DNA from: Escherichia coli
GTDB taxonomy: Bacteria > Pseudomonadota > Gammaproteobacteria > Enterobacterales > Enterobacteriaceae
Reading direction: 5' to 3' (one strand)
Assembly (NCBI RefSeq): GCF_050320075.1
Contig: NZ_CP190018.1
DNA: 64,000 nt
Shown: in pieces, positions 3,897-47,050 of the stretch
Layout: every line of letters begins with the position of its first letter
How positions within the stretch are numbered: position 1 is the first letter of the stretch
The notes under the pieces: model-generated
The model's input: the letters and a program-made list of their open reading frames with translations, nothing else
What the model was told of the DNA's origin: nothing
Databases searched by the model: none
Translations under genes and position numbers: made by a program

Positions 3897-5282
3897 TTAT
3901 ACATCCGCCGGATCGATACCGTATTCCTGGAGTTTATACATCAATGCACGGCGACTGATGCCCAGCATTAAAGCAGTGCGGGTTCGGTTTCCTTCTTGTT
4001 GTTCCAGCACTTCCATAATGATGCGTTTTTCGACGCGTTTAATTTCCTCTTTTAAATTACGCTCACCGACAGGGGCTGTTTTTGCCTCACCAGCATTACA
4101 GACTGGCTGACGAATCTGCGGCGGAAGATCCTCAGAGAAAATGATCGGGCCTGAGTTCATCACGACGGCGCGTTCAATAACGTTGGAAAGCTCTCGAATA
4201 TTTCCCGGCCATGACCAGGCGGTAAGCAGTGACATTGCCATCGGATCGATGTCGATAATATCGCGCTGATTCTCACTACTGAATTTTTGCAAAAAGTGAT
4301 TAGCTAACAGGGAAATATCTTCCCGGCGATCGCGCAGAGGCGGCAGTATTAAATGAATAACGTTAAGGCGATAAAAGAGATCTTCACGGAAGGTGCCTTC
4401 TTTTACCATTGCCTGCAAGTCACGGTTGGTGGCAGCAATGATGCGGATATCAACTTTTATGGTCTGATGGCCGCCAATCCGTTCAAATTCCCGTTCCTGC
4501 AGAATGCGTAGTAATTTGGCTTGCAGTACGAGCGGCATTTCGCCAATTTCGTCGAGGAGCAGAGTACCTTCGTTGGCACGTTCAAATAATCCCTGACGCA
4601 AGGTTTGTGCACCAGTAAATGCACCTTTTTCATGACCAAACAGTTCACTTTCGAGCAACGATTCCGGCAGCGCCGCGCAGTTGACTTTAATGAACGGCCC
4701 CTTTGCCCGCCGCGAATTGTAGTGAATCGCTCTGGCAATCAACTCTTTCCCGGTGCCGCTTTCACCGCTAATCAAGACGCTGGCCTGAGAAAGGGCAATT
4801 TTGGCGGTGTCTTTGCAGATATCCATCATCGCAGGGCTGTTGGTGAGAATGTGCCCCCATTGCCAGCTGGTGCTCAGTGCCTGGTGCAGATGACGGATCT
4901 CTTTTTTCATTGACTGGAGTTGTAAAGCGCGCTGAACGATTAAATTCAACTCATCGAGATCAAACGGTTTGATAACATAGTCGAAGGCCCCGCAGCGTAG
5001 CGCTTCGACGGCGGTTTCCACTTCAGCATAGGCCGTCATCAGAATAACGGGGGTCCGTGTCTCATGGCTGCGCATCTCCTTGAGTGCCTTGATGCCGTCC
5101 ATCTCTGGCATGCGGATATCCATCAACACCACGTCAGGGTGAATATCGGCAAACAGGTGTAATGCTGTGCGTCCGTTGTTCGCACAATGTGTTTCGAATC
5201 CTTGTAGTGCAAAAGCGGTGCTCAGCATACGGCGAACATTATCTTCATCATCCACAATAAGGATGCGATTAATAGCAGTCAT
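3897..5282 (-). CDS. atoC: sigma-54-dependent response regulator (NtrC family)
   Basis: 461-aa ORF: receiver domain (VDDEDNVRRM...D), AAA+ sigma-54 activator core (GESGTGKE, GAFTGA) and C-terminal HTH. Confidence 0.9.
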   Translation of the reverse strand: MTAINRILIVDDEDNVRRMLSTAFALQGFETHCANNGRTALHLFADIHPDVVLMDIRMPEMDGIKALKEMRSHETRTPVILMTAYAEVETAVEALRCGAFDYVIKPFDLDELNLIVQRALQLQSMKKEIRHLHQALSTSWQWGHILTNSPAMMDICKDTAKIALSQASVLISGESGTGKELIARAIHYNSRRAKGPFIKVNCAALPESLLESELFGHEKGAFTGAQTLRQGLFERANEGTLLLDEIGEMPLVLQAKLLRILQEREFERIGGHQTIKVDIRIIAATNRDLQAMVKEGTFREDLFYRLNVIHLILPPLRDRREDISLLANHFLQKFSSENQRDIIDIDPMAMSLLTAWSWPGNIRELSNVIERAVVMNSGPIIFSEDLPPQIRQPVCNAGEAKTAPVGERNLKEEIKRVEKRIIMEVLEQQEGNRTRTALMLGISRRALMYKLQEYGIDPADV

Positions 5283-45077: not shown

Positions 45078-45269
45078 TTATGCTTCACGAGTTTCTCTCT
45101 CACGTTCTTTCAACCAGGCGAGTACCTCATCTTCATACCAGCCAATGCGACGCAGCCCGATACGGAATCCTTTGGGGAACCCGCCTTTGTTAACCATCTC
45201 CGTTAGGGTCGAATCAGATTTAATGCGTAGCAAGGCCTTTACCTCTGGTCGTAAAAGAATAGCCCTCAT
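45078..45269 (-). CDS. alpA: AlpA-family phage regulatory protein (HTH, excisionase-like)
   Basis: 63 aa; pattern ILLRPEVKALLRIKSDSTLTEMVNKGGFPKG...IGWYEDEVLAWL matches AlpA/CP4-57 regulators; sits next to the integrase. Confidence 0.75.
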   Translation of the reverse strand: MRAILLRPEVKALLRIKSDSTLTEMVNKGGFPKGFRIGLRRIGWYEDEVLAWLKERERETREA

Positions 45270-45522: not shown

Positions 45523-46767
45523 TTATTTTATTCCGCGTAATCCTCTGTGCCCGCTGGCGATGGTTGTTCCGGTTGCGGCTGCTTCCACAAAATCACCCCA
45601 CCAGCACATTAACACTTTACGTTTTTCCAGGTAGTTGCTTCGGTTGTATGCCCGTCTAACTTCGTTTGTGTCCACGTGGGCTAGTGCGGCTTCGATCACG
45701 TCAGGTTCAAATCCTTCTTCATTCGCCGCCGTGCTGAATATTGCGCGTAGTCCGTGAGATACCAGCACACCAGCGTAACCCATTCGTCGTAATGCTGCGT
45801 TTGCTGTCTGGCTGCTCATTGATTGCACTGGATTTTTAAGACTTGGGAAAACATGCTCCCTTCGTGCGCTAATCGGCTTCATGGCTTCAAGCACTGCCAT
45901 CGCCTGAGCGCAAAGGGGGATCACATGATCACGGCGCATCTTCATGCGTCCGGCTGGTATCGTCCAGGTTGCCGCCTCAAGGTTGATTTCTTCCCACCGT
46001 GCGGCGGAGGCTTCGGCTGGGCGGGTTGCGGTTAACAACTGCCACTCAATCAGCAATCTGGTTTGCCGTTCTATGCTGGCGATCGATAAATCGTGCATTA
46101 GCTGCGGTAGTTGTTCCGGTCGGATGGTTGGCATGTGCTTTTTGGTGGGGGAAGGGAATGCCTTGCGAACGTTCGCGGCGGTGTTGATGTCAATCAGTCC
46201 ACTGTTGGCAGCAAAATCCATCACTTCATTGATGCGCTGTAAAACGCGTTTCAGTGTTTCCAGGTTGCCACGTGCCTTGATGGGCGTGAGTATCTCAACA
46301 AAGCGGCGAGCGGTGAGAGTATCTATCGGTGTGTTTCCGATATACGGGAATACATATTTCTCTAGCGAGCGCCAGATGTCCTTGATCGTATTGTGGGCGA
46401 GATTCTGGTTTTTTTTCATTTCGTACCACAATGCGGCCACATTTTCGAACGTGTTGCCCTGTCGTCGAGCCTCTGCTTCGAGTTTTTGCCGTTCGTATTC
46501 CTGCGGGTCGGTTCCTGCCGCAATTAACGTCCTGTACTCGCTACGGCGTTTTCTGGCATCAGCCAGGGAGACTTCATCAAGCGAGCCCAAACTAATGATT
46601 GTTCGTTTTTTGTTCGATGGTCGATAGTAGTTGAATCGCCATAGTTTCGAACCAGACGGCTTAATAACGAGAAAAAGCCCGCCGCCATCCTGTAAGGTGT
46701 ATTCTTTTTCCGCTGGTTTAGCTGCTTTGATCTGTGTGGTGGTGAGTGGGGTCGCCTTTCTTGCCAT
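45523..46767 (-). CDS. int: tyrosine recombinase / integrase, P4 family
   Basis: 414 aa; N-terminal arm-binding domain (LTTTQIKAAKPAEKEYTLQDGGGLFLVIKPSGSKLWRFNYY), catalytic region with R...HGLR...Y; adjacent to the tRNA 3' end. Confidence 0.9.
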   Translation of the reverse strand: MARKATPLTTTQIKAAKPAEKEYTLQDGGGLFLVIKPSGSKLWRFNYYRPSNKKRTIISLGSLDEVSLADARKRRSEYRTLIAAGTDPQEYERQKLEAEARRQGNTFENVAALWYEMKKNQNLAHNTIKDIWRSLEKYVFPYIGNTPIDTLTARRFVEILTPIKARGNLETLKRVLQRINEVMDFAANSGLIDINTAANVRKAFPSPTKKHMPTIRPEQLPQLMHDLSIASIERQTRLLIEWQLLTATRPAEASAARWEEINLEAATWTIPAGRMKMRRDHVIPLCAQAMAVLEAMKPISARREHVFPSLKNPVQSMSSQTANAALRRMGYAGVLVSHGLRAIFSTAANEEGFEPDVIEAALAHVDTNEVRRAYNRSNYLEKRKVLMCWWGDFVEAAATGTTIASGHRGLRGIK

Positions 46768-46799
46768 ACGTTTATGAATCCACGGGAAAAAACAGGTTC

Positions 46800-46856
46800 T
46801 AGTTATACGGATTTAGCTATGCGCCAGCCCGTATAACTAAACATATAACTAAAAAA
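46800..46856. repeat. candidate integrase arm-type sites (GTATAACTA repeats)
   Basis: TAGTTATACGG (inverted), GTATAACTAAA and ATATAACTAAAA between int and the tRNA; another copy CGTATAACTAAA at 38879-38890 near the other island end. Confidence 0.5.
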
Positions 46857-46973
46857 AACGGCTGAAAACCACTGTTACCGTCGAATAACGATGACTAAAA
46901 ACAATAAAAAAACCCGCTATTCAATGAATTAGCGGGCTTATTTCATAAAAACGATAATTAATAATGGGCGATT

Positions 46974-47050
46974 TGGTCGGCACGAGAGGATTTGAACCTC
47001 CGACCCCCGACACCCCATGACGGTGCGCTACCAGGCTGCGCTACGTGCCG
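46974..47050 (-). tRNA. proL: tRNA-Pro (anticodon GGG inferred)
   Basis: Minus strand reads CGGCACGTAGCGCAGCCTGGTAGCGCACCGTCATGGGGTGTCGGGGGTCGGAGGTTCAAATCCTCTCGTGCCGACCA: 77 nt, cloverleaf-compatible, GGTTCAAATCC T-arm, encoded CCA. Confidence 0.9.

Follow-up and report, generated by a model that had tools for sequence, protein, structure and literature searches.

The 64-kb stretch of Escherichia coli chromosome analysed here (hereafter, the window) carries an 8.2 kb island between yejO, which encodes an autotransporter, and the tRNA-Pro(GGG) gene proL, with yejM lying beyond proL (Table 1). The island borders were settled by comparison with an empty yejO-proL-yejM site (locus L001), which reads GGGGATTTTTGGTCGGCACGAGAGGATTTGAACC, and the tRNA 3′ end is intact at the int-proximal junction. 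All island genes are carried by the minus strand. In addition to a P4-family integrase gene (int), an AlpA-family HTH gene situated 250 bp downstream of int and a DUF927 primase gene, they comprise an ash pseudogene, an icd-like gene, a DUF4222 gene, ssb, a ProQ/FinO gene and a PerC gene; the tRNA and int setting is as the first-pass annotation had stated it. The island combines int, alpA and primase/replication genes with a specific att site and a size within ~8–20 kb, without phage structural or lysis genes, and an int/alpA/primase set of this kind has been described for phage-inducible chromosomal islands (PICIs) of Gram-negative bacteria, E. coli among them (PMC11773190). Three such elements, EcCICFT073, EcCIEDL933 and EcCIMP1, resemble the island in int, alpA, primase and PerC genes, in size and in a tRNA-linked att site. 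An identical island occurs in strain YZLc1-3; at least 80% of the island is present in 52 of 5426 complete E. coli genomes, and a related int-proximal arm was found in 361 of these 5426.

Sister proL islands (L003–L005) encode capsid and small-terminase proteins, unlike the window island, which has neither capsid nor terminase genes. It also lacks their prohead-protease gene, and ~1 kb at its left end (38891-39825) is without an annotated gene; the window island may be a reduced or decaying relative of the capsid-encoding islands. Its cargo includes, at 40091-40908, a regulator of the PerC family and an RNA-binding protein of the ProQ/FinO family; in EcCIMP1, a PerC-like gene has been reported to silence LEE expression (PMC11773190). 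Separately, iteron-like GGGACAAGT repeats with a 21-nt period form two inverted clusters, at 39240-39290 (plus strand) and 41445-41506 (minus strand), with further repeats at 39160-39199 and 41564-41581. There are five exact copies of GGGACAAGT in the window, all within the island. One cluster lies just downstream of the primase gene and the other in the gene-free left kilobase, and together they are a candidate replication origin.

Table 1 Features of the proL island and of its recombination sites, in window coordinates
Feature	Position	Strand	Basis or remark
yejO	36102-38693	+	
int-distal core remnant CACGAGAG (CTCTCGTG on tRNA strand)	38798-38805	-	comparison with empty site L001 and other occupied sites
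IHF-like site AATCATACAGTTA (WATCAANNNNTTR, 1 mismatch), between core and distal pair	38823-38835	-	consensus match
distal arm site 1, degenerate, CGTATATCCAAA	38867-38878	+	equivalent is CGTATAACCAAA in L004, CGTATAGCTTAA in L003
distal arm site 2, exact consensus CGTATAACTAAA	38879-38890	+	73 nt from end of core remnant
DUF927 primase gene	41606-43741	-	
AlpA-family HTH gene, candidate excision/activation factor	45078-45269	-	Pfam Phage_AlpA
int, P4-family tyrosine integrase, 414 aa	45523-46767	-	Pfam Arm-DNA-bind_3, Phage_int_M, Phage_integrase
int-proximal arm site CGTATAACTAGA, nearest int ATG (30 nt away)	46798-46809	-	conserved across 28 loci
int-proximal arm site CGCATAGCTAAA, degenerate	46812-46823	-	same alignment column: CGTATAACTAAA in L004/L005, CGTGTAGCTAAA in L003
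int-proximal arm site CGTATAACTAAA	46830-46841	+	exact consensus
int-proximal arm site CATATAACTAAA	46842-46853	+	aligned in relatives
putative int promoter: -35 TTTTCA (46868-46863), 17-nt spacer, -10 TATGTT (46845-46840)	46840-46868	-	read by eye
terminator hairpin and U-run, island-borne, downstream of proL	46904-46946	-	RNA fold -17.3 kcal/mol, z -3.3
int-proximal core, 17-nt block CTCTCGTGCCGACCAAA, 3′ end of tRNA-Pro	46972-46988	-	common to reconstructed attP and attB
tRNA-Pro(GGG) proL, integration target	46974-47050	-	ARAGORN; RefSeq annotation of identical locus

The first-pass annotation had drawn attention to a short repeat near both island ends, and the observation is real: exact GTATAACTA occurs three times in the window (38880-38888, plus; 46800-46808, minus; 46831-46839, plus), always at an island end, where shuffles led us to expect 0.14 copies and 0 of 100 shuffles reached three. 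Of the three copies, one inverted, that had been reported between int and the tRNA, the positions were right, but the third (ATATAACTAAA, 46843-46853) begins with A and not G, so that it was the pattern RTATAACTAAA that added this site at 46843. The recurrence claimed inside the other boundary was borne out as an exact CGTATAACTAAA, and two degenerate copies had been overlooked. The full set thereby comes to six 12-nt sites with the consensus CGTATAACTAAA. Allowing up to two mismatches, this consensus has nine matches in the whole window against 3.8 expected by chance; six of the nine make up two clusters, of 24 and 56 bp, one at each end of the island, with three scattered singletons left over.

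The sites are unlike the core in sequence and lie on both sides of it, just inside both island ends (38867-38890 and 46798-46853). The four between int and tRNA-Pro form two inverted tandem pairs, and the remaining two form one tandem pair at the far end, 61 nt inside the far core remnant. One distal and one proximal site are degenerate, with two mismatches each, and a repeat search paired the two island ends as a 39-nt repeat of 77% identity. Further short, lineage-specific repeats were seen in the int-proximal region: AACGAT occurs twice between the core and the arm sites of the window (46887-46892 and 46950-46955), and CACCGGA/CACCGAA occurs several times in the int-tRNA spacer of L004/L005. 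These are possible binding sites of the AlpA-like excision factor.

To describe the layout across relatives, we examined 28 loci: besides the window, these were three more proL islands of E. coli and 24 of the nearest hits in a one-genome-per-species scan that yielded 80 loci. Comparing repeat positions in related islands was the check that the first-pass annotation had named, with non-conservation as the result that would speak against it; the number, order, orientation and spacing of the repeats are kept in all 28 loci, which span E. coli, E. albertii, Citrobacter, Pectobacterium, Brenneria, Erwinia, Rosenbergiella, Pantoea, Gilliamella and Frischella. The order is invariably tRNA, terminator hairpin, usually CCGTTTACAGCCGGA, two tandem 12-mers, a short spacer, two inverted 12-mers and the int ATG. 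Alignments placed all four int-proximal sites in register in the three other E. coli proL islands, whose integrases are 83–87% identical.

The motif itself varies between elements, yet each element uses one motif, the same at both ends. In RM13752, every site at both ends is GTATAGCTA or GTGTAGCTA in place of GTATAACTA, a difference that, as read from the alignments, is a concerted change. Class GTATAACTA was found in the window, E. albertii, Pectobacterium aroidearum, P. brasiliense and Brenneria; class GTATAGCTA in RM13752, LSJC7 and Pantoea; class TAGTCCC(A/T)AA in Citrobacter, Erwinia, Buttiauxella, Rosenbergiella and other Pectobacterium species; class TATGCCTAA in P. betavasculorum; and class GTATAACAT, at other tRNAs, in Gilliamella and Frischella.

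Two observations on individual relatives stand beside this classification. The island of E. albertii NBRC 107761 (L006) has an Int 97% identical to that of the window, an identical AlpA, the same arm sites and a distal pair at a similar distance from int, a closeness that points to recent transfer between species or to shared ancestry. Furthermore, proL is occupied in tandem in two Pectobacterium genomes (L016, 18420-18720; L029, 9740-10000), where the int-proximal arm of a TATGCCTAA-class element comes immediately after the far arm and core of a TAGTCCC-class element; the second int of the L016 tandem is cut off after ~45 codons.

All 11 loci with sequence reaching the far end of the island carry a tandem pair with a 12-nt period, in the element's own motif, 61–62 nt from the CTCTCGTG core remnant. 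When the far-end pair was sought in the Gilliamella and Frischella loci, only coding-region singletons were found, and the island ends there probably lie beyond the sequence covered. In 8 of the 10 related loci inspected, the IHF-like match between pair and core is positioned precisely at -30 relative to the core, and it is a probable IHF site.

The far core remnant, by comparison with the empty site, is damaged. The far junction of the window, GATTTTTGG^CACGAGAG, has 4 nt fewer than attB (GATTTTTGGTCGGCACGAGAG), and all the E. coli proL islands that we looked at have a small deletion within GGTCGGCAC (window 38787-38805): the window, 2009C_3996 and RM14516 have lost 4 nt, LH50c and RM13752 have lost 2 nt, STEC383 has lost 1 nt, and more is missing in AHB10. 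One nucleotide is missing in P. peruviense (L015), and the far core is intact in L008 (Enterobacteriaceae bacterium LSJC7) and L014 (Erwinia psidii). One and the same deletion is found beside different arm types, and islands that share an arm type can differ in their deletions. Recurrent "locking" of the island could account for these deletions, as could a hot spot at an Int cleavage site. Given the 4-nt deletion, the island may be locked in place in this strain, and its recombination substrate may no longer be fully functional there. We also considered that the gap is encoded in attP with a crossover in TTTGG, which is unlikely, since the gaps of 1, 2, 4 and more nucleotides in relatives would change the core spacing.

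The architecture of the sites is that of the attP of satellite phage P4, the reference member of the family (NC_001609), in which 12-nt "attP arm sequence repeats" are annotated as tandem pairs at 4151-4174 and 3942-3965 around a core at 4078-4097, and the int start codon carries an inverted copy (3915-3926). The order in P4 is pair, 54 nt, core, 112 nt, pair and inverted copy, as against pair, 61 nt, core, 118 nt, pair and two inverted copies in the window. Both systems have a tandem pair of 12-nt period on each side of a core at a tRNA 3′ end, an inverted copy by the int start, an int gene transcribed away from the tRNA and an Arm-DNA-bind_3 domain in Int. They differ in motif (TGGGGGCA in P4, GTATAACTA in the window), in target (tRNA-Leu, as opposed to tRNA-Pro) and in the integrase, the two proteins being 34% identical. 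A single inverted copy lies on the ATG of P4 int and another is annotated within the gene, whereas both inverted copies of the window lie upstream of int.

The int-proximal sites may also bear on expression of int. Since int lies downstream of the tRNA on the same strand, and a terminator separates the two (a hairpin kept at this position in relatives), the int promoter must lie in the ~140 nt that hold the arm sites. The putative promoter of the window has 8 of 12 consensus matches, below the threshold of our scan, and its -10 element straddles the junction of the two plus-strand arm sites. A sigma-70 promoter scan returned no candidate above threshold in the int-tRNA spacer of the window or in P. 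aroidearum L010, so the overlap of promoter and arm sites in the window is one that we infer; in L014, the scan gave TTTACA-17-TAGATT, overlapping the first site pair. As a separate observation, CCGTTTACAGCCGGA is kept just before the first arm site across motif classes (L008–L034, ~60–75 nt upstream of int); it contains a -35-like TTTACA and has degenerated to GGTTTTCAGCCGT in the window (46860-46872).

A precedent for such an overlap is the attL-PintS region of KplE1 (CPS-53) in E. coli K-12, where, as in the window, tRNA and int follow each other on the same strand (PMC2951348). There, arm-type sites lie on the int promoter, where a P′ arm site overlaps the -10 of PintS, and IntS has been shown to repress its own gene (PMC2951348), whereas the corresponding overlap in the window is read from the sequence. 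KplE1 differs from the window in the sequences and numbers of its sites and in its directionality factor, TorI, which is not AlpA-like. Autoregulation by direct DNA binding is also reported for P4 Int (Piazzolla et al. 2006, as cited in PMC2951348) and has been predicted for most tRNA-linked int genes (PMC2951348). On this analogy, we lean slightly towards Int repressing its own gene when bound at the proximal sites of the window.

The same observations could be taken further, namely that the four proximal copies are an int operator only, that the far-end copies are incidental and that the repeats have no part in recombination. The proximal sites do adjoin or overlap the likely int promoter, and Int autoregulation via such sites has been documented for KplE1 and is reported for P4 as well (PMC2951348). 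The far end nevertheless makes this quite improbable: a pair kept in 11 loci in the element's own motif, at a fixed distance from the core and with an IHF-like site at -30 in most of those examined, has a geometry that is sensible only relative to the crossover site, and the same far-side pair in P4 is annotated as attP arm repeats.

Int codons 1–95 (46483-46767) encode an arm-binding domain (Arm-DNA-bind_3, E 8e-25, residues 8–94), which matched PDB 3JU0 by sequence (E 3e-20), as well as 3JTZ. An AF2 model of Int (pLDDT 88) places strands at residues 23–28, 31–35, 41–48 and 55–62 and a helix at 68–83, and Foldseek superposed this model on 3JU0 with an rmsd of 0.8 Å and 51% identity, again with matches to 3JTZ and also to 3RMP, whose entry title reads "recognition of attP substrates by P4-like integrases". 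These structures are the integrase arm domains of HAI7 (Pectobacterium) and HPI (Yersinia), which have the same fold of a four-stranded sheet and a helix; they belong to other islands with other DNA motifs. Relative to the lambda type, the N-domain of the P4/SXT type has an extra strand and helix (PMC8138268).

Upon pairwise comparison of 18 full-length proL integrases, the N-domain was found to vary with the motif. Pairs of the same motif family had a mean identity of 73% in residues 1–95 and 81% in residues 105–414; for pairs of different motif families, the means were 54.5% and 79.4% (up to 99.4%), respectively. Eleven columns separate the GTATARCTA from the TAGTCCY group (residues 18, 19, 23, 26, 32, 40, 42, 46, 57, 59 and 82). 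All of them lie within the N-domain (residues 18–82), and eight of the 11 are on predicted beta-strands. Judging from these comparisons, residues 23, 26, 32, 40, 42, 46, 57 and 59 probably set arm-site specificity in P4-type integrases.

The sharpest contrast comes from P. aroidearum L010, of class GTATAACTA, and P. peruviense L015, of class TAGTCCC, whose integrases are 99.4% identical after residue 100 and 67% identical before it. Their DNA is identical from the tRNA to CCGTTTACAGCCGGAAA, diverges from the first arm site to about int codon 85 and is identical again thereafter. At the far end, where L015 has its own GGGACTA pair, L010 and the TAGTCCC-class locus L016 diverge over only ~130 nt, a stretch that takes in the spacer to the core, the tandem pair itself and ~30 nt preceding the pair. 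In these alignments, no coding sequence other than the arm-binding domain of Int changes along with the sites, and the L010/L015 natural swap is the nearest thing to a specificity-swap experiment that sequence can offer on its own. In the excised circle, both arms and int codons 1–85 are contiguous, within ~600 bp, and co-inheritance of arms and N-domain could be due in part to this physical linkage; linkage leaves unexplained the use of one motif at all six sites of an element.

Covariation with Int also bears on whether another protein reads the repeats, the obvious candidate being the AlpA-family protein, as directionality factor or activator. Its gene lies close downstream of int, proteins of the AlpA type act in excision of E. 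coli PICIs (PMC11773190), and directionality factors of KplE1 bind repeats in one att arm (PMC2951348). Yet L010 and L015 have 100% identical AlpA-like proteins, with that of L016 at 98.6%, beside GTATAACTA arms in the one and TAGTCCC arms in the others; the window AlpA is closer to those of TAGTCCC-class loci (67–69%) than to those of the same-motif E. coli loci L004/L005 (59–64%), and sites on both arms would be unusual for a directionality factor. The identical proteins with different motifs led us to reject AlpA as the reader of the repeats, a role that we consider very improbable. Least credible of all are sites for a host factor (IHF, Fis or similar) or chance AT-rich repeats, for although the region is AT-rich and 8-mers with one mismatch are not enriched over the window as a whole, we set both aside because the exact 9-mer and the 12-mer occur more often than expected and cluster strictly at the two ends of the island, and because the motif class switches with the Int N-domain inside one genus (Pectobacterium L010 compared with L015/L016), as a host-factor site would not.

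Lambda Int is heterobivalent and bridges arm and core sites through bends made by IHF. Like the window, lambda has arm sites on both sides of the core (PMC9791396); it differs in having five arm sites (P1, P2 and P′1–P′3), compared with six here, and an int promoter that is not inside att. The first-pass annotation had read the repeats as arm-type sites of a P4- or lambda-type integrase, a reading now supported by the Arm-DNA-bind_3 domain of Int, conservation of the layout, covariation of motif and N-domain and the likeness to P4. We thus consider it highly probable, from the comparative evidence, that the P4-family integrase encoded by the island itself uses the six CGTATAACTAAA-like 12-mers as its arm-type binding sites. 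They are an already known kind of feature, with unusually clean comparative evidence. A literature search that included PICI papers found no occurrence of the 12-mers and nothing relevant on arm sites in PICIs.

In the mechanism that we propose, the excised circle would have an attP in which the six sites lie to either side of the 17-bp tRNA-Pro core. On one side, the tandem pair would lie 61 nt from the core with the IHF-like site between them; on the other, a tandem pair 118 nt from the core would be followed by two inverted copies, the last of them stopping 30 nt short of the int start codon. The N-terminal beta-sheet domain of Int (residues ~8–95) would bind the arm sites, and its C-terminal domains would bind and cut the core. 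Bridging by Int, together with DNA bending, would assemble an intasome that serves integration and, with the help of the AlpA-like factor, excision. After integration, the four sites near int would stand on or beside the int promoter, where bound Int would probably repress int.

Current understanding of how P4-type integrases work is unchanged by this finding, which adds the full recombination substrate of a common proL satellite-island family: six arm sites, a 17-bp core, a probable IHF site and a probable int operator. Knowledge of this substrate serves integration vectors, prediction of island mobility and annotation of true island ends, and the short list of specificity residues is useful for the design of orthogonal integrases. 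As judged from the alignments, the cassette of arm sites and N-domain is sharply bounded and occurs in several classes on otherwise near-identical integrases. The sharply bounded swap and the tandem Pectobacterium neighbours (L016 and L029) of different classes invite a bolder reading, which we offer tentatively and regard as unlikely, that arm sites and Int N-domain are an exchangeable specificity cassette, diversified at one attB (proL) into the orthogonal classes GTATAACTA, GTATAGCTA, TAGTCCC and TATGCCTAA, possibly by selection. If this were true, the Int of one element would not excise its neighbour, assemble on its neighbour's arms or repress its neighbour's int promoter, and several satellites could share or compete for one tRNA site, even in tandem, as "arm immunity types".
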